A DNA stretch of 55,730 nucleotides from Campylobacterales bacterium (GTDB lineage Bacteria; Campylobacterota; Campylobacteria; Campylobacterales; JALSKU01), in assembly GCA_027065125.1 (NCBI GenBank), contig JAMOOV010000046.1, forward strand, positions 1 through 55,730. Direction: 5' to 3'. Positions 14,317 to 50,876 of this stretch are shown here, one piece after another. The position numbers were made by a program, and so were the translations under genes. The notes beneath the pieces were generated by a model. The model made no database searches and was not told the DNA's origin. It worked only from the letters and a program-made list of their open reading frames with translations. How positions within the stretch are numbered: position 1 is the first letter of the stretch; every line of letters begins with the position of its first letter.

Positions 14317-15655
14317 TCATTATCGAAAGAAACTCTTTGTTGTCTTTTGTTTTTAAGAGTTTTGAATACAAGAATTTTAAAGCTTCTATCTCTTCCATTT
14401 GGCTTATAGCTGTTCTTAATGCCCAAATTCTTGGCAGATCATTTTTATCTACAAGTAGCTCCTCTTTTCTTGTGCCGGACTTGATTATATCGATAGCGGG
14501 ATAAATTCTTCTGTCTGATATGTGTCTATCAAGTATGATTTCACTGTTTCCTGTACCTTTAAACTCTTCAAATATGACTTCATCCATTCTGGAACCGGTA
14601 TCTATAAGTGCGGTTGAAATGATGGTTAAACTGCCACCTTGTTCTATATTTCTTGCTGCACCGAAAAATCTTTTTGGTTTATGAAGAGCATTTGCATCGA
14701 CACCACCGCTTAGAACTTTACCGCTACTTGGAGTAACTGTGTTGTATGCTCTTGCAAGTCTTGTTATGGAATCAAGAAGTATAACTACATCTTTGCCTAT
14801 CTCTACTCGTCTTTTTGCTTTTTCGATAACAAGTTCCGCTACTCTTACATGGTTTGTTGCTGCGAGGTCAAATGTAGAGCTATATACATCTCCTTTGACA
14901 CTTCTTTGCATATCAGTAACCTCTTCAGGTCTTTCGTCAACAAGTAAAACTATAAGTTCAATCTCCGGATGATTGTGTGTTATGCCGTGAGCTAACTCTT
15001 TTAAAAGTTCTGTTTTGCCACTTCTCGGAGGAGCTACTATCAAAGCTCTCTGTCCTTTTCCTATGGGTATAAATAGATCTAAAACTCTTCCCGTTAACTT
15101 TAAGGGGTCATACTCAAGTTTTATCCTTTCGGTAGGATAAAGTGGAGTTAAGTTTTCAAAAAGTGGTCTGTTTCTGCTCTCTTTTAGTGGTAGATAATTG
15201 ACGGCTTCTATCTTTAAAAGTGCATAATATCTCTCTTGGTCTTTTGGAGGTCTAACTTGTCCCGTGACCACATCACCGGTTCTAAGGGCAAATTTTCTAA
15301 CTTGAGTAGCACTTACATATGCATCATTTTGACTATCGCTTAGATTTTCATCTACTGCTCTTAAAAAGCCATACCCGTCATGCATTATTTCAAGTATGCC
15401 TGTAAATAGTATATATCCACCTTGGCTTGTTTGGGACTTTAATATTTCAAACATTATATCTTGTCGTTTTAGTTGATTTGGATTTTCTATGTCAAGCTTT
15501 TCGGCTATTTCTATAAGTTCGGTTATGCTTTTTTTTCTAAGCTCTTCTATTTTGTATCCGTCAACAGGAATATGTGTTCTTTTTCCATTATATTTTTTAT
15601 TTGGAGTATTGCCATTTTTGGCTTGTCCTCGTTTTGTATTTTCTGAAGTGTTCAT
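14309..15655 (-). CDS. rho: Transcription termination factor Rho
   Basis: [45 protein letters not shown]. Confidence 0.98.
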
Positions 15656-43721: not shown

Positions 43722-44552
43722 ATGCTTGAAACTTATAATGAACTTCTCGTAACTCCTTCAAAATATTTTCAACTTTTTTGTGATTTTATACTTGAGCTTG
43801 GAGTAGATGCGATAGAAGAGCAGAATGGTTCCATAATCGTTAGAAGTGAAGAGGATTTAAGTGAAATTAAGTTCGGAGTGGAAGAATTTGCCAAAAAACT
43901 TTCGAATGCTGTGAGTGAAAAAGTCGATGTTTCTCAAATTTTAACACAAAAAGAAAATATCGATTGGATTGAAAAATATAAAAATTCTATTCAGCCTGTT
44001 GAAATTGGAAAATTTTATATCCACCCTACTTGGGAAGATGACAAAGAAAAGTTTATTAATATTTTGATTGATCCCGCTTTAAGCTTTGGGACCGGACATC
44101 ACGAAAGTACTTCATCTTGCTTGGAGATCATAGGGGATATTGTTAAGGAAAAAGACACAGTTTTGGATGTTGGTTGTGGTAGCGGCATACTCTCTATAGC
44201 TGCTGCAAAGCTTGGTGCCTTAGTTGATCTATGTGATACTGATCCTTTAAGTGTGAAGAGTGCAAAAAAGAATTTTGAATTAAATCATGTTGCACATAAC
44301 AATATTTGGGAAGGTTCGGCAAATTTTGCACAAGAAAAATATGATACTGTTATAGCCAATATTGTGGCAGATGTTCTTGTTATGATAAGTGGAGATTTGA
44401 AAAAAGCTGTAAAGCAAAATGGCAATCTGATATTATCAGGGATATTGGATAAATATTTGGATAAAATATTATTAAAATATAATGATTTTCAAATCATGAA
44501 AAATATTAAAAAAGGGGAGTGGATAACTCTTCATTTAAAAAAGGGAAAATAG
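43722..44552 (+). CDS. prmA: Ribosomal protein L11 methyltransferase
   Basis: IDPALSFGTGHHEST, LDVGCGSGILS, ANI, LSGI. Confidence 0.95.
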   Translation: MLETYNELLVTPSKYFQLFCDFILELGVDAIEEQNGSIIVRSEEDLSEIKFGVEEFAKKLSNAVSEKVDVSQILTQKENIDWIEKYKNSIQPVEIGKFYIHPTWEDDKEKFINILIDPALSFGTGHHESTSSCLEIIGDIVKEKDTVLDVGCGSGILSIAAAKLGALVDLCDTDPLSVKSAKKNFELNHVAHNNIWEGSANFAQEKYDTVIANIVADVLVMISGDLKKAVKQNGNLILSGILDKYLDKILLKYNDFQIMKNIKKGEWITLHLKKGK

Positions 44553-46537
44553 TGGCACAAAACAATAATCAAAAAAATGATAATAATAATTTTTTTAATA
44601 ACAATCCATTATTAGTATTTGCAATCTTTTCTATAGTTGTCATATTGATTTTTAAAAGCTTTGTAAATCCTGCAACAGGTATTAACAATATGCAAAGTGG
44701 TATGTTTGACAACAATCAAAAAGTTATCAGTAAAAATGTAAGTTACTCTAAGATAAAAAATCTTATCGAAAAAAAAGAGGTAAATAGTGTAGCTATAGGT
44801 CAAACTATTATAAAGGCCGTATCCGATACAAATGGTATGAAAATCGTATATATAGCTAAAAAAGTAGGAGATGATCCTACTCTTATACCACTACTTGAGA
44901 AAAATCATATCTCTTATGCAGCTTTTAGTGAAACAACTTGGCTAAGCGAATTTCTCTTTTCTTGGGTGCTACCTATATTTATATTTTTTGGTATATGGAT
45001 GTTTTTGGCAAACAGAATGCAAAAAAATATCGGAGGTGGGATACTTGGTATGGGAAGCAGTAAAAAACTTATAAATTCTGAAAAACCAAATACTAAATTT
45101 TCTGATGTAGCAGGAGTTGAAGAGGCTAAAGATGAAGTAAAAGAGATAGTTGACTTTTTGAAGCATCCCGATAGGTACTTAAGACTTGGGGCAAAGATAC
45201 CAAAAGGTGTACTTTTGGTAGGACCTCCGGGTACAGGTAAGACTCTTCTTGCTAAAGCTGTAGCAGGAGAGGCTGATGTACCTTTCTTTTCTGTTTCTGG
45301 ATCATCATTTATAGAGATGTTTGTTGGAGTAGGAGCGAGTAGAGTGAGGGATTTGTTTGAGGGTGCAAAAAAAGAGGCACCATCCATAGTTTTTATAGAC
45401 GAGATAGATGCCATAGGAAAAAGTAGAGCAGCTGCAGGAAATTTCGGAGGAAATGATGAAAGAGAACAAACTCTAAACCAACTTTTAGCAGAAATGGATG
45501 GATTTAGCTCAGACAATTCTCCTGTTATTGTTCTTGCAGCTACAAATAGACCGGAAGTTTTAGATCCAGCCTTGCTTAGACCTGGAAGATTTGACAGACA
45601 AGTTCTTGTAGATAAACCGGACTTTAAAGGTAGAGTTGAAATTTTAAAAGTTCACATAAAAGGTATAAAACTTGCTAAAGATATAGATCTTGAAGAGATA
45701 GGCAGACTTACGGCAGGACTTGCCGGGGCAGATTTGGCAAATATTATCAATGAAGCCGCACTTCTTGCAGGTAGAAACAATCAAGACGAAGTAAAACAAA
45801 AAGATATGATTGAAGCGGTTGAAAGAGCCATAGCCGGACTTGAAAAGAAAAGCAGAAGAATAAATTCAAAAGAGAAAAGGATAGTAGCTTACCACGAAAG
45901 CGGTCATGCACTTATAGCCGAGACTACAAAAGGGGCTAAAAAAGTTTCTAAAGTTTCTATCATTCCAAGGGGTCTTGCTGCACTTGGATATACTCTAAAT
46001 ACTCCGGAAGAGAATAAATTTTTAATGCAACGACATGAACTTATTGCTGAAGTCGATACTCTTCTTGGCGGAAGAGCGGCTGAGGAAGTTTTTATAAAAG
46101 AGATATCTACTGGTGCGGGAAATGATTTAGAAAGAGCGACCGATATCATAAAAGCTATGGTTAGTATGTATGGTATGAGCGAAGTTGCCGGACTTATGGT
46201 ACTTGAAAAACAGCAAAACAGATTTATGCCAGGAGCTACTGTAAAAGAGTATAGCGACAAGATGGCTGAAAATCTTGACGAATATGTAAAAACCATGCTT
46301 GATGAAAGATATAAAAGGGTTCTTGGAACTTTAAGAGAGTATAGTGAAGCAATTGAAAATATCGTTAAAGAGTTGTTTGAAAAAGAGACTATAAAAGGAA
46401 CACTTGTTAGGAAAATTATAAAAGAGTTTGAAAAAGCCAATGGTATTCAAAGGGAAGATGATGAGGAAAGTGATATACAAAAAGCGGAATATAATGCTAA
46501 TAATGATAAAAAAAATGAAGAGGATAAAAAGTCTTAA
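44552..46537 (+). CDS. ftsH: ATP-dependent zinc metalloprotease FtsH
   Basis: Two TM helices, GPPGTGKT, FIDEID, SRH, HESGH; probable GTG start 44552. Confidence 0.97.
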   Translation: MAQNNNQKNDNNNFFNNNPLLVFAIFSIVVILIFKSFVNPATGINNMQSGMFDNNQKVISKNVSYSKIKNLIEKKEVNSVAIGQTIIKAVSDTNGMKIVYIAKKVGDDPTLIPLLEKNHISYAAFSETTWLSEFLFSWVLPIFIFFGIWMFLANRMQKNIGGGILGMGSSKKLINSEKPNTKFSDVAGVEEAKDEVKEIVDFLKHPDRYLRLGAKIPKGVLLVGPPGTGKTLLAKAVAGEADVPFFSVSGSSFIEMFVGVGASRVRDLFEGAKKEAPSIVFIDEIDAIGKSRAAAGNFGGNDEREQTLNQLLAEMDGFSSDNSPVIVLAATNRPEVLDPALLRPGRFDRQVLVDKPDFKGRVEILKVHIKGIKLAKDIDLEEIGRLTAGLAGADLANIINEAALLAGRNNQDEVKQKDMIEAVERAIAGLEKKSRRINSKEKRIVAYHESGHALIAETTKGAKKVSKVSIIPRGLAALGYTLNTPEENKFLMQRHELIAEVDTLLGGRAAEEVFIKEISTGAGNDLERATDIIKAMVSMYGMSEVAGLMVLEKQQNRFMPGATVKEYSDKMAENLDEYVKTMLDERYKRVLGTLREYSEAIENIVKELFEKETIKGTLVRKIIKEFEKANGIQREDDEESDIQKAEYNANNDKKNEEDKKS

Positions 46538-47190
46538 TGATTTGTAGAAAAACTGAGATAATTGCAAAAGAGGGGTGGAAATATACAGCGATTTTTACTG
46601 TTTTATTTCTATTTTTTGCTCTTGTGGGATGTACTGTTTTTGCACTATTTTTTGCATTTTTGGCTATATTTTTTGGCTATATTTTTAGAAATCCAGAAAG
46701 AATTCCTGATGAATTTGATGAAATGTCCATACTTGCACCAATAGATGGTAAGGTTTCATACATAGGAAAAACTGTTGAGGATAAATACCTTAAAAAAGAG
46801 ATGTTAAAAGTTTCTATAGATAATTCTATATGTGATGTATCTTTGCAAAGAAATCCATTTGATATGAATATTGAAAATGTATTATACACTCACGGATTGA
46901 GTATAGATATCAAATCAAATAAATCAAAAACTTTAAATGAGAGAGTGGAAATTTTATCAAAGCATGAAGAAAAAGATGTACTTATAGTATCTTATGCTGG
47001 AAAATGTGCAAGAAAGATACATACAATATGTAATAATTTTAAAAAAGTAAGAAAAGGTGATAGATATCTTATTTTAACAAGTGGAAAAGTTGAGCTTTTT
47101 TTGCCTCTTGAATGCAGGATAAAAGTTGTCGAAGGTGAAAAAGTAAAAGCCGGAGAGAGTATTCTTGGATATTTTTTAGATGATAAATAA
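46537..47190 (+). CDS. Phosphatidylserine decarboxylase-related protein (cleavage motif degenerate)
   Basis: IAKEGW, FRNPER, APIDGKV, VKAGES; lacks GS cleavage motif. Confidence 0.75.
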   Translation: MICRKTEIIAKEGWKYTAIFTVLFLFFALVGCTVFALFFAFLAIFFGYIFRNPERIPDEFDEMSILAPIDGKVSYIGKTVEDKYLKKEMLKVSIDNSICDVSLQRNPFDMNIENVLYTHGLSIDIKSNKSKTLNERVEILSKHEEKDVLIVSYAGKCARKIHTICNNFKKVRKGDRYLILTSGKVELFLPLECRIKVVEGEKVKAGESILGYFLDDK

Positions 47191-47920
47191 AAATAAATCT
47201 TATCTAATATATATAATCCCCAATCTATTTACTGCTGCAAGTGCTTTTACGGGAGTTTTGAGTATTATAGCCTCATCAAAAGGGGAATTCGAAAAGGCAG
47301 TATATCTCATACTGTTGTCTTTGCTTTTTGACGGACTTGACGGAAGAGTAGCTAGACTAACCAAAACCACTTCAAGATTTGGTGCCGAGTTTGACTCTCT
47401 TGCTGATTTGGTAGCTTTTGGAGTTGCACCTGCTATGCTTTTTTACTATAATATTGGTGTACACTATGGCAAATTGGGTTCTTTGTTAACTGCGATTTAT
47501 GTGCTTTTTGGAGCTATAAGACTTGCAAGATTTAATGTAACGATACCTACAAGTGAACCATCGGTTTTTATAGGGGTTCCTATCCCAACTGCTGCAGTTT
47601 TTATAAGCATTTGGATACTTTTTGGTATAAAATACCATATGGTAGATGGAAAATTTTCTTGGATAATTTTGATATTTATCACTCTTGTATCCTTTTTGAT
47701 GGTTAGCAACATAAGATACCCCAGTTTTAAAAAGATAGATTTTAAAAAAGCCAATATAAAAAAGGTTTTGATAATTCTTATAGCATTACTATCTTTTGTA
47801 TATTTGTTTTTGATAGAATCCATAGTACTATTTTTTACTTTGTATATTTTGTATGGTTTGTTTAGAGGATATAAAAGTTTTCAAAAACGAAGAAAAATTG
47901 CAAAAAATGGTAAAATTTAG
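47180..47920 (+). CDS. pssA: CDP-diacylglycerol--serine O-phosphatidyltransferase
   Basis: PNLFT, DGLDGRVAR..FGAEFDSLAD, RLARFN. Confidence 0.94.
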   Translation: MINKNKSYLIYIIPNLFTAASAFTGVLSIIASSKGEFEKAVYLILLSLLFDGLDGRVARLTKTTSRFGAEFDSLADLVAFGVAPAMLFYYNIGVHYGKLGSLLTAIYVLFGAIRLARFNVTIPTSEPSVFIGVPIPTAAVFISIWILFGIKYHMVDGKFSWIILIFITLVSFLMVSNIRYPSFKKIDFKKANIKKVLIILIALLSFVYLFLIESIVLFFTLYILYGLFRGYKSFQKRRKIAKNGKI

Positions 47921-47926
47921 TATAAT
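47921..47926 (+). promoter_or_regulatory. -10 box (TATAAT) of leu leader/leuA transcript
   Basis: Perfect TATAAT right after pssA stop, 12 nt before AAGGAG SD of leader ORF. Confidence 0.6.
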
Positions 47927-47950
47927 AAATCAAAATTCAAGGAGAGTTAT

Positions 47951-48040
47951 ATGCAAGGTACAATAACTGGCACGGTAAAAGCCATCAAATATTTACCAAA
48001 AATTGAGACAAAAAACTCTCTACTGTTACTACAATTTTAA
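47951..48040 (+). CDS. Putative leucine-sensing leader peptide (29 aa: MQGTITGTVKAIKYLPKIETKNSLLLLQF)
   Basis: SD AAGGAG 47939-47944, ATG 47951, tandem Leu codons CTA CTG TTA CTA at 48020-48031, TAA 48038-48040, 48 nt upstream of leuA. Confidence 0.72.
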   Translation: MQGTITGTVKAIKYLPKIETKNSLLLLQF

Positions 48041-48088
48041 TATTTTACACAATCTATCATAAAAATCATATACAATAAGGAAAAATAA

Positions 48089-49606
48089 ATGCAAGATAAA
48101 ACTATAAAAATATTTGATACGACTTTAAGAGACGGTGAGCAAAGCCCCGGAGCTTCGATGAATACTGAAGAGAAAATCCAAATAGCCTTACAGCTTCAAA
48201 AACTCGGAGTTGATATCATAGAGGCGGGATTTGCGGCGGCAAGCGAGGGCGATTTTGATGCTATAAGCAAAATAGCCTCCGTTGTGGATGAAAGCACGGT
48301 ATGCTCTTTGGCAAGAGCGATGGAAAATGATATAAAAAAGGCTGGTGAAGCCATAAAAAATGCCAAAAAAAGAAGAATACACACCTTTATAGCTACAAGC
48401 CCCATCCATATGGAGTATAAGCTTAAAATGAAGCCCGAAGAGGTGATAAAAAGAGCTGTAATGGCCGTGGAGTATGCTAAAACTTTTGTAGATGATGTGG
48501 AGTTCTCTTTGGAAGATGCTTGTAGAAGTGAGATGAGTTTTATGAAAGAGATTATCGATGCTACCATAAAAGCCGGTGCCAATACTATCAATATACCCGA
48601 TACCGTTGGTTATTTATTGCCTGATGAGATATATGAGGTAACCAAGGAGGTATGTAATTTTATAGGAAATAGAGCTATAGTATCTCTTCACAACCATAAT
48701 GATCTTGGTTTGGCAACAGCAAATACACTTTCTGGTATTCAAGCCGGAGCAAGACAGGTAGAATGTACTATAAATGGTATTGGCGAAAGAGCAGGCAATG
48801 CTGCACTTGAAGAGATAGTAATGACGATAAAAACAAGAAGCGATAAATTTGAGGGATTTAAAACCAATATAAACACAAAAGAGATATATCCTACCAGCAG
48901 ACTTGTGGCAAATATAACTGGTATCAATCCTCAACCCAATAAAGCGATAGTTGGTAAAAATGCTTTTGCTCACGAAAGCGGTATCCATCAAGACGGAGTT
49001 TTAAAACACAAAAATACATATGAGATAATGAGAGCTGAAGATATAGGACTTAGCCAAAACTCATTGGTGCTTGGTAAGCACTCCGGTCGTCATGCTTTTA
49101 AAGATAGGGTGTCACAACTTGGATATTCCTTGAATGATGAAGAGATCAATAAAGCATTTTTGAGATTTAAAGATTTGGCAGATAAGAAAAAAGAGATATT
49201 TGATGATGATATTAGAGCGATTGTAACAAGTCAAATAACAAAAACAGAAGAGATGTATAAGCTTGTCAGTATGCAACTTAGCGATTGTAGTGGCGGAGTT
49301 CCGAGTGCAGCAGTTGCTATAGAACATAGCGGAGAAACCATCACAGATGCTGCCATAGGAAATGGTACTATGGATGCAGTCTTTAAAGTAATAGATAGAG
49401 TTTCTAATATTCATGGAGAGCTTAAAGAGTATAAGGTAAATTCTGTAACACAGGGAAAGGATGCTTTGGCAAGAGTTGTAGTAAAAGTAAAGTTTGAAGA
49501 GTGTAAAACTCCCGTTATGGGGCATGGACTTAGCCTTGATACTATGGAAGCAAGTGCGAAAGCCTATATAAATGCTTTAAATAATTATCTATCTATCAAA
49601 AAGTAA
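48089..49606 (+). CDS. leuA: 2-isopropylmalate synthase
   Basis: [37 protein letters not shown]-terminal regulatory domain. Confidence 0.96.
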
Positions 49607-49847: not shown

Positions 49848-50876
49848 ATGAATTTTCCAAATTTTCCAAAAGATTGCAAATCTCTACTTTGCAAATACTT
49901 GACAAAAGAGGTTTTTGAAGAGTTAAAGAACAAAAAGACACCAAACGGTTTTACTATAGAAAAAGCAATTAATTCTGGAGTTAAAAATATAGACAGTGGC
50001 ATAGGAGTCTATGCAGGAGATAAAGAGAGTTATGATGTTTTTGCTCCTTTATTTGATCCTATTATAAAAGAGTATCACGGTTTTGAAAAGAGTGATAAAC
50101 ATATAAGTAATTTCAATCCGAAAGATTTAAAGATGACCAATCCAGATCCAAGCAGTCAATATATCCTATCCACAAGGATAAGAGTAGGTAGAAATTTGGC
50201 TGATTTTCCACTTGGTACTATCATATCAAAAGAACAAAGAGATGAGGTGGAAAAAAGAGTGAGCGATGCATTAAAATCTTTCGACGGAGAGTTGAGTGGA
50301 AGCTATTATCCTTTAAAAGGAATGAGTAAAGATATTCAAGAACAACTCATAAAAGATCATTTTCTGTTTAAAGAGGGGGATAGGTTTCTTGAGGCTGCGG
50401 GGTTAAATAGAGATTGGCCTGAGGGCAGGGGAATATACCATAATGACGATAAAACTTTTTTAGTATGGATAAATGAAGAGGATGAACTTAGGATTATCTC
50501 TATGCAACAAGGCGGAGATATCAAAGAGGTTTTTGACAGATTGGCAAAAGCGGTGGATTTTATACAAAATAGTGTAAAGTTTATGAAAAGCGAACATCTC
50601 GGATATATAACAAGTTGTCCTACAAATCTTGGAACGGCCATGAGAGCAAGTGTTCATATAAAGTTACCCAAGCTTTCAAGAGATATGGATCTATTTAAAA
50701 AGATAACAGACAAAAATCATCTTCAGATAAGAGGAGTTCACGGCGAACATTCCGAGAGTGAAGGTGGTATTTTTGATATAAGTAATAAAAGAAGACTTGG
50801 TGTTAGTGAAGTTGACTGTGCCTATGACCTTTATAATGGTGTAAAAGAGCTTATTGAGGTGGAAAAAAGTTTGTAG
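49848..50876 (+). CDS. Phosphagen (arginine) kinase, eukaryote-type with N-terminal domain
   Basis: KSLLCKYLT, DSGIGVYA, STRIRVGRN, DHFLFKEGDRFL, WPEGRG, WINEED, CPTNLGT, RGVHGEH, DISNKRRLG. Confidence 0.93.
   Translation: MNFPNFPKDCKSLLCKYLTKEVFEELKNKKTPNGFTIEKAINSGVKNIDSGIGVYAGDKESYDVFAPLFDPIIKEYHGFEKSDKHISNFNPKDLKMTNPDPSSQYILSTRIRVGRNLADFPLGTIISKEQRDEVEKRVSDALKSFDGELSGSYYPLKGMSKDIQEQLIKDHFLFKEGDRFLEAAGLNRDWPEGRGIYHNDDKTFLVWINEEDELRIISMQQGGDIKEVFDRLAKAVDFIQNSVKFMKSEHLGYITSCPTNLGTAMRASVHIKLPKLSRDMDLFKKITDKNHLQIRGVHGEHSESEGGIFDISNKRRLGVSEVDCAYDLYNGVKELIEVEKSL

Follow-up and report, generated by a model that had tools for sequence, protein, structure and literature searches.

A Conserved LeuL-Type Leader Upstream of leuA in an Uncultured Member of the Campylobacterales

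What does a short, leucine-rich open reading frame (ORF) do directly upstream of leuA, the gene for 2-isopropylmalate synthase, and by what means might it control that gene? The question is raised by a contig of 55,730 nucleotides (nt) from a member of the Campylobacterales (JAMOOV010000046.1, positions 1 to 55,730, assembly GCA_027065125.1; this whole stretch is called the window), in which such an ORF ends in four tandem Leu codons. Comparison with related genomes indicates that the ORF is probably a Leu-sensing regulatory leader; as a LeuL-type leader it would gauge the charging of tRNA-Leu(CUN) by how fast it is itself translated, and would adjust leuA expression in cis.

Results

A Leader ORF Between pssA and leuA

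47951 to 48040, plus strand: leader ORF (LeuL type), 29 codons and a stop, encoding MQGTITGTVKAIKYLPKIETKNSLLLLQF
47939 to 47944, plus strand: leader Shine-Dalgarno (SD) sequence AAGGAG, 6 nt ahead of the ATG at 47951
48020 to 48031, plus strand: four Leu codons in tandem (CTA CTG TTA CTA), where sensing is proposed to occur (sequence and codon counts)
48089 to 49606, plus strand: leuA, 2-isopropylmalate synthase, the putatively regulated gene (NCBIfam NF002086)

The gap between pssA (stop codon at 47918-47920) and leuA (ATG at 48089) is 168 nt. Every sequence element named in the original prediction is present in it: the TATAAT box, the AAGGAG, the ORF of 29 codons, the Leu codons CTA CTG TTA CTA and the spacer of 48 nt from the leader stop to the leuA ATG. 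The leader peptide ends in SLLLLQF, the Leu codons being followed by CAA TTT TAA. Both flanking genes score above their NCBIfam cut-offs (leuA, 773.7 bits against 532 for NF002086, with TIGR00973 also above its cut-off; pssA, 162.8 bits against 107 for TIGR00473). The leader peptide itself matches no Pfam family at E ≤10 and no NCBIfam family at E ≤1.

The leuA loci of relatives were drawn from genomes of the same order (30 loci) and from named public contigs (80 loci); one locus with only 4 nt of upstream sequence was excluded, so that 109 were evaluated. A leader was accepted where an ORF of 18 to 34 codons lay upstream of leuA, followed an SD and had a Leu run among its 12 final residues; the strong SD found in all accepted leaders is thus part of the search criterion. 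A conserved upstream ORF (uORF) of the form SD-ATG-(Leu)n, which the original prediction anticipated ahead of leuA in Campylobacterota relatives, was recovered in 93 of the 109 loci, giving 89 distinct leader regions. These come from the window's genus, Sulfurospirillum, Hydrogenimonas, Nitratiruptor-like genomes, Sulfurovum, Nitratifractor, Sulfurimonas, Wolinella and the Campylobacter concisus and C. showae groups. Under a stricter rule (LLL), 10 of 21 further loci have leaders, and the rule missed at least four visibly Leu-rich ones. The distribution applies to the order, within which all sampling was done (401 genomes for the motif pattern described below).

A point against a Leu-sensing leader is that 16 of the 109 loci, together with the loci of one family (f13), have leuA and no leader; these 16 include cases in which pssA or another gene abuts leuA.

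The whole genome was scanned for short ORFs that follow an SD, contain an amino-acid run and lie ahead of a long ORF. Of the four matches, the leuA leader alone precedes an amino-acid biosynthesis gene; the other three are not credible. Judged by sequence comparison, the leader ORF is real and conserved beyond chance, because a comparable uORF is conserved in relatives.

Codon Choice in the Leucine Run

Leu codons in this genome (2.02 Mb, 32.4% GC; counts from 1211 crude ORFs of at least 200 aa) are distributed as TTA 26.8%, TTG 20.8%, CTT 33.2%, CTC 6.0%, CTA 9.8% and CTG 3.4%. An estimate by eye had put CTA and CTG among the less common codons in neighboring genes; counting bears this out for three of the four leader codons (CTA, CTG and CTA), which are rare in this genome, and not for the fourth, TTA, which is common. 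The genome has one tRNA-Leu gene each for the anticodons tag, gag, taa and caa.

Among the 89 distinct leaders the preference is sharper. The Leu-run codons comprise CTG 139, CTC 79, CTA 63, CTT 57, TTA 3 and TTG 0, so that 338 of 341 are CUN codons. The run ends one or two codons ahead of the stop in 65 of the 89 leaders, and an NCU codon precedes it in 61, the encoded residue varying among S, T and A.

The end of the leader has other recurring features. The last residue is Leu in 42 of the 89 leaders and the stop is UAA in 69, and the string CUC(U)CACUCUAAUAC around the leader stop recurs across lineages with unrelated leader N-termini (for example, L002, L004-L008, L060-L064 and L141-L143).

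A Conserved Peptide Block

47975 to 48016, plus strand: conserved peptide block VKAIKYLPKIETKN, with the type-A motif K-A/S-I-K-F/Y-L-P-K-I-E-I-K-N (pN/pS and pattern search)

In one group of leaders, type A, a conserved peptide block sits directly ahead of the Leu run. It is common to the window's genus, Sulfurospirillum, Hydrogenimonas, Nitratiruptor-like genomes and the C. concisus group. Across 31 distinct nucleotide versions of the 14-codon block, the ratio of nonsynonymous to synonymous differences (pN/pS) is 0.17 in the leader frame versus 2.10 and 1.06 in the two alternative frames; pS (0.74) is near saturation. Among the invariant residues, Pro is encoded by all four of its codons, and Leu and Ile by three codons each. 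The equivalent block of Sulfurovum-type (type-C) leaders gives a pN/pS of 0.60. In type A, then, selection acts on the peptide, beyond the Leu codons, and this purifying selection in the leader frame argues for translation of the ORF.

A degenerate DNA pattern for LPKIEIKN (one mismatch allowed at most) is found in 114 of the 401 genomes sampled from the order, chiefly within five families (8/10, 21/22, 21/39, 15/22 and 27/38 genomes). Thirty of the pattern loci were fetched: 21 lie in ORFs of 26 to 80 codons, stop to stop, directly upstream of leuA, and the other nine are chance occurrences inside other ORFs. The leader N-termini of other lineages are unrelated to the block (MIYTIN..KQFNK..STLLLL, MKTIIN.N.IF..DSTLLLLSL and MNGNVKFNAFFSLLLLLR).

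Selection of this kind might also mark a small protein that acts in trans with a function of its own, its place ahead of leuA being incidental or secondary. Strong purifying selection on 13 residues (pN/pS 0.17) is unusual for a codon-run leader, and peTrpL of Sinorhizobium offers a precedent (bioRxiv 10.1101/864512, as far as the available part of that report goes). Against a trans-acting protein, leaders with unrelated N-termini keep the position, the length, the SD and the CUN Leu run, small ORFs with the pattern are confined to the position immediately ahead of leuA (21 of the 30 loci fetched, the other nine being chance occurrences), and the peptide is without a Pfam or NCBIfam family; we regard such a protein as most unlikely.

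Relation to Described LeuL Leaders

The original prediction knew of no leader of this kind in the phylum, which proved wrong: LeuL has been named in C. jejuni (PMC3847290) and ribosome peaks have been reported on it (PMC11955535). In the available parts of these papers, C. jejuni LeuL is an ORF of 28 aa ahead of leuABCD whose C-terminal end contains five Leu codons, each of them rare (CUA, CUC and CUG, together 10.5% of Leu codons), and LeuL orthologs are reported in most Epsilonproteobacterial genomes having leu genes (Porcelli et al. 2013; PMC3847290). The authors propose that transcription terminates if no ribosome stalls. Ribosome profiling shows ribosome peaks and strong translation-initiation peaks on C. 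jejuni LeuL (Froschauer et al. 2025; PMC11955535), the one leader of this family whose translation the literature documents. The literature searched gave no other treatment of the leader.

The window ORF resembles these leaders, as far as their available descriptions go, in being an SD-preceded ORF of 20 to 35 codons directly upstream of leuA, with C-terminal Leu residues in the rare codons CUA, CUC and CUG, in the same phylum; it shares with them its size, ribosome binding site (RBS) and position, its rare-codon Leu tail and its positional conservation. No sequence homology to C. jejuni LeuL is seen outside the Leu tail, which is all that the window peptide has in common with leaders of the C. 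jejuni-like genus (L141 and L143); the published definition of the family rests on position and composition and not on sequence. The leaders of that genus read M(K/E)QIFK...NLLLQLSL, for example MKQIFKISNSVQQKSKDNAFNLLLQLSL (28 aa), and fit the published description; they have a U-rich spacer of 104 to 110 nt, whereas the window has the KAIKYLPKIETKN block and a 48-nt spacer free of G. By position and composition, then, the window ORF is a member of a family already known in the phylum since 2013. The peptide block, the pairing of the SD with leader codons and the missing terminator, the last two treated below, do not appear in those portions of the LeuL accounts found that were available, and Figure S7 or Table S12 of PMC3847290, in which the orthologs are listed, may show the same peptide alignment.

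The LeuA proteins of the C. jejuni-like genus (g27) are themselves more distant: a leuA match at E ≤1e-100 occurs in 6 of 15 sampled genomes, and these matches are 45-49% identical to the window's LeuA, while other families of the order reach 63-74%.

Predicted Pairing of the Leader SD with the Pre-Leu Codons

47941 to 47948, plus strand: 5' arm of helix P1, GGAGAGUU, formed by the SD core plus the spacer that follows it (minimum free energy fold, duplex and comparative tests)
48014 to 48021, plus strand: 3' arm of helix P1, AACUCUCU, codons N22 and S23 and the first two bases of Leu24 (same tests)

The leader SD is predicted to pair with the codons at the start of the Leu run, forming a helix (P1) that in the window has 8 bp and a duplex energy of −11.1 kcal/mol; a pairing between the SD and the pre-Leu codons is predicted in nearly all of the 89 leaders. 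The register of the SD shifts between sequences, so register-free duplex and helix-length tests were used in place of column covariation. The longest contiguous helix averages 7.06 bp for cognate versus 6.44 bp for non-cognate pairs (72 distinct pairs; 0 of 5000 permutations as good), and 7.09 versus 6.07 bp when the leaders are grouped in 23 peptide-level clusters (again 0 of 5000). Random windows taken from the leuA of each locus give a mean helix of 4.78 bp, and a helix of at least 7 bp is formed by 69% of the cognate pairs versus 8.5% of these windows. Some complements are lineage-specific: GGAGGAUAG/CUAUCCUCC in locus L013 corresponds to GGAGGAUGG/CCAUCCUCC in L050, a clear compensatory variation in which the change in the 3' arm is a synonymous Ser codon, and Sulfurospirillum has GGAGAAGCG/CGCUCUCC. 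The NCU codon ahead of the Leu run, kept in 61 of the 89 leaders although its residue changes, likewise speaks for the pairing.

Several results weigh against P1. The mean duplex energy is −11.82 kcal/mol for cognate and −10.89 kcal/mol for non-cognate pairs, a gap of about 1 kcal/mol; the signal lies mostly in a shared core (GGAGAG with CUCUCC), and a shuffled Leu region still reaches −8.9 kcal/mol in the SD duplex versus −11.15 kcal/mol for the real one. The permutation counts given above overstate the case, related sequences not being independent, and a test restricted to the helix extension was not significant (586 of 5000 permutations as good). RNAalifold found no consensus structure in a MAFFT alignment of 30 type-A leaders, and the 180-nt leader of the window folds no better than its shuffles (z −0.11). 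P1 could in part be a by-product of constraints that act separately on the SD, which has to be strong, and on the CUC-CUG codons. On balance the predicted folds and the comparative tests make P1 likely to be real; it is not proven.

A pyrimidine-rich Leu region that resembles an anti-SD (CUCUCC) brings to mind the actinobacterial LEU element, in which, according to the available part of its description, a leader ORF with a Leu run likewise lies upstream of leuA and a base stem joins the Leu run to an SD box (Seliverstov et al. 2005; PMC1262725). By the same logic the Leu-codon run in the window would pair with the SD of leuA, and a stalled ribosome would free it. In that description, however, the SD belongs to leuA, whereas in the window it belongs to the leader, and no pseudoknot is seen. 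The duplex of the Leu region with the leuA SD averages −4.39 kcal/mol for cognate versus −4.87 kcal/mol for permuted pairs (1999 of 2000 permutations as good or better), shuffled Leu regions pair more strongly still (−5.67 kcal/mol), and the window duplex reaches −2.7 kcal/mol. Sequestration of the leuA SD by the Leu region was rejected on the ground that the cognate duplex is weaker than permuted or shuffled ones, and the probability left to a switch of this kind is vanishingly small.

A parallel for P1 is the trp leader of Escherichia coli, where, in work from the Yanofsky laboratory, the trpL ribosome binding site is reportedly sequestered. There, as in the window, a segment further down the leader can bind the leader SD, so that leader translation would be confined to the first ribosome; in the window, by contrast, the SD would pair with the very codons that do the sensing, and a stalled ribosome and P1 would therefore be mutually exclusive.

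A Promoter-Like Site and Neighboring Genes

47898 to 47926, plus strand: promoter-like sequence TTGCAA-17 nt-TATAAT (consensus scan, 10/12 match)
48077 to 48081, plus strand: leuA SD sequence AAGGA, free of pairing with the Leu region

The TATAAT box (47921-47926) starts one base after the pssA stop and implies a transcript start downstream of it, at about 47932-47934. The same consensus scan finds three promoter-like sites in 1 kb versus 4.4 expected from shuffles, so the promoter match, taken alone, is weak evidence and only a lead. The promoter string TTGCAAAAA...TAAAATTTAGTATAAT is kept in relatives of the genus (L002, L004-L007 and L009), where it doubles as coding sequence for the pssA C-terminus, overlapping the last pssA codons and the stop.

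Upstream, ftsH, psd (PF02666) and pssA lie head to tail into the leuA leader (44519-47920, plus strand). There is no terminator between pssA and the leader; transcription reading through from the lipid genes is therefore possible. Shortly 3' of leuA, an ORF of 342 aa (49848-50876, plus strand) has both domains of a phosphagen kinase of the arginine/creatine type (PF02807, 108.1 bits; PF00217, 266.2 bits), a family that is uncommon in bacteria.

The Region Between Leader and leuA

48026 to 48078, plus strand: G-free tract of 53 nt, rich in A, U and C, unstructured and rut-like (rut, Rho utilization), from the third Leu codon to the leuA SD

A standard scan finds no terminator-like site in positions 47500-48500. 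A lenient scan from the Leu run to 140 nt into leuA (stem of at least 5 bp, free energy of at most −3, five U in seven) finds none in 11 type-A loci, eight of them from the window's genus, and in that genus no sequence complementary to the Leu run lies 3' of it. When a ribosome footprint is masked at the Leu codons or at the stop, the folds change in P1 only. As modeled, the window's genus is left with neither an intrinsic terminator nor a sequestered leuA SD, only with a C-enriched spacer free of G.

Other lineages differ. Sulfurovum, Nitratifractor and Sulfurimonas, with leaders of types B and C, have a spacer of 95 to 270 nt that contains conserved hairpins followed by U runs, these hairpin-plus-U elements lying 50 to 80 nt past the leader stop. 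In the C. concisus and C. showae groups the Leu codons and the stop region form a small hairpin ahead of a U-rich stretch (CUGCUAC-UUAG-GUAGCA in C. concisus and GCUGC-GCUAA-GCAGC in the C. showae group). Masked folding identified no antiterminator in the Sulfurovum-type leaders; their hairpins persist with the stalled ribosome masked. From the sequences, one conserved sensing module (a strong SD, about 20 codons, the CUCUCC arm and a CUN Leu run near the stop) appears to be joined to lineage-specific output modules.

The hairpins can be described further. A conserved hairpin UCUAAUUAACC...GGUAAAAUUAGA followed by CAAUUUU is found 50 to 80 nt past the leader stop in L062, L087, L090, L091, L108 and related Sulfurovum and Sulfurimonas loci, and a second GC-rich hairpin with UUUU often follows there, just ahead of the leuA SD. 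A related hairpin, CCGAUUUAG..CCC UUUU GGG..AAAUCGG, occurs in the Nitratifractor-like loci L013, L039, L050 and L093.

Hairpins of this kind are what classical attenuation would call for, with a weak, AU-rich intrinsic terminator past the leader stop that forms unless a ribosome stalls on the Leu codons. The clear hairpin-plus-U elements of Sulfurovum, Nitratifractor and Sulfurimonas and the Leu-codon hairpin with its U-rich run in the C. concisus and C. showae groups fit such a device, and so does the finding that C. jejuni leader RNAs end shortly past the stop codon (PMC3847290, available text). For the window it is improbable: neither scan yields a terminator in the window or in the 11 type-A loci, the Leu run of the genus is without a downstream complementary sequence, and no antiterminator was identified even in the Sulfurovum-type leaders.

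The same gap separates the window from its enterobacterial namesake. Like enterobacterial leuL, the window leader is a short ORF ahead of leuA with a tandem of four Leu codons in which a rare CUN codon is used, and the logic of sensing tRNA-Leu charging would be the same. It differs in matching neither the Rfam nor the Pfam Leu_leader model (E ≤10), in having no terminator/antiterminator pair and in the place of the Leu run, which lies two codons from the stop and in enterobacterial leuL in mid-peptide. An Rfam search (cmscan) of 47700-48300 on both strands gave no matches at E ≤10, and thus no T-box or other riboswitch family. The proposal that ribosome-mediated Leu sensing controls leuA is accordingly strengthened on the side of the sensor, by the conserved position and Leu run (93 of 109 loci), the CUN codons (338 of 341) and purifying selection; on the side of the output, the analogy with enterobacterial attenuation is incomplete, for want of a terminator/antiterminator pair in the window or the genus and of an Rfam match.

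What the window's genus has after the leader is an unusual base composition. The 34-nt spacer contains no G and six C, whereas 354 upstream segments of the genome average 4.1 G and 3.4 C; segments without G make up 2.5% of this background, and those without G and with at least six C make up 0.56%. Nine leaders of the genus together have 5 G and 66 C in 359 nt, and 60 short-spacer leaders across lineages have 3.3% G and 19.5% C. A rho gene is encoded within the window itself (Rho_RNA_bind domain at 15191-15403, minus strand, 107 bits against a cut-off of 27, in an open frame of 453 aa).

Regulated termination might also be dispensed with altogether. Stalled or queued ribosomes would then keep P1 open and cover the 5' end, so that leuA mRNA is stabilized, as in erm-like systems, or leuA is initiated better. 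About 6 nt separate the predicted 5' end from the start of the leader, stalling alters the predicted folds solely by opening P1 and so releasing a very strong SD, and an unstructured A/C-rich spacer fits a leuA RBS that is always open. Campylobacterota rely on RNase J and are not known to have RNase E. Such post-transcriptional control is nevertheless unlikely: the leuA SD is sequestered in no state, hence there is no translational switch to flip, and a 5'-proximal P1 stem would protect the mRNA when no ribosome is stalled as well.

Discussion

The features of this locus suggest the following sequence of events. Transcription would begin a few bases past the TATAAT at 47921. A ribosome would load on AAGGAG and translate the 29 codons, as conservation and codon-level selection indicate. 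When leucine is scarce, it would stall on CUA-CUG-UUA-CUA, two codons ahead of the stop, with the conserved block KAIKYLPKIETKN in the exit tunnel. Once the Leu codons are uncovered, AACUCUCU could pair with the leader's own SD and close the leader RBS, so that mainly the first, co-transcriptionally loaded ribosome would report; a stalled ribosome would hold P1 open.

The last step is speculative. Rho would load on the G-free, C-enriched tract at 48026-48078 and terminate transcription; a ribosome that terminates and leaves would expose this RNA to Rho, while one stalled on the Leu codons, together with one initiating on leuA, would leave too little naked RNA for it. Rho-dependent termination is our leading guess for the output in this genus, and a tentative one; it is favored because neither an intrinsic terminator nor a structure that covers the leuA SD is found there. 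Elsewhere, the same leader combined with hairpin-plus-U elements would make the output module lineage-specific.

Leaders whose translation controls Rho-dependent termination are known from tnaC-tnaA and from the mgtL/corL type. The window resembles them in having a stall site by the leader stop, then an unstructured tract with C in excess of G instead of a hairpin, and in that Rho is encoded. It would differ in its signal, which would be uncharged tRNA-Leu at hungry codons and not a free amino acid sensed in the tunnel or effects of Pro and Mg2+. A tna-like mode has been suggested for cys leaders without terminators (PMC1262725, available part).

Other considerations speak against Rho. The G-free tract is only 53 nt long, and P1, as modeled, would mask 8 nt of the supposed rut site. 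A stalled ribosome leaves the spacer naked behind RNA polymerase and could thereby favor Rho in the wrong condition. The depletion of G could instead serve to keep the leuA RBS unpaired. In the available text on C. jejuni, the mechanism proposed is intrinsic termination and antitermination, not Rho (PMC3847290).

Going further, the type-A block could be a nascent-chain arrest or tuning element that makes elongation through the CUN codons hypersensitive to Leu-tRNA or even to free leucine, combined with a Rho read-out on the G-free spacer and with P1 as a gate that admits one ribosome. The block co-occurs with the absence of any terminator and is found in at least five families of the order. 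We consider this full combination rather doubtful. If true, it would be a new architecture for amino-acid attenuation, in which a nascent peptide, a codon run and an SD:codon helix act without a terminator.

The locus extends the list of leucine leaders to an uncultured hydrothermal-vent genus of the Campylobacterales and, as a sighting, is ordinary. Its value lies in what it may say about the mechanism by which LeuL controls leuA in the phylum. The selected peptide block and the SD:codon helix supply two concrete hypotheses that can be addressed by mutation, and they raise the question of whether attenuation can do without a terminator, working through Rho or mRNA stability, in a phylum with few intrinsic terminators.

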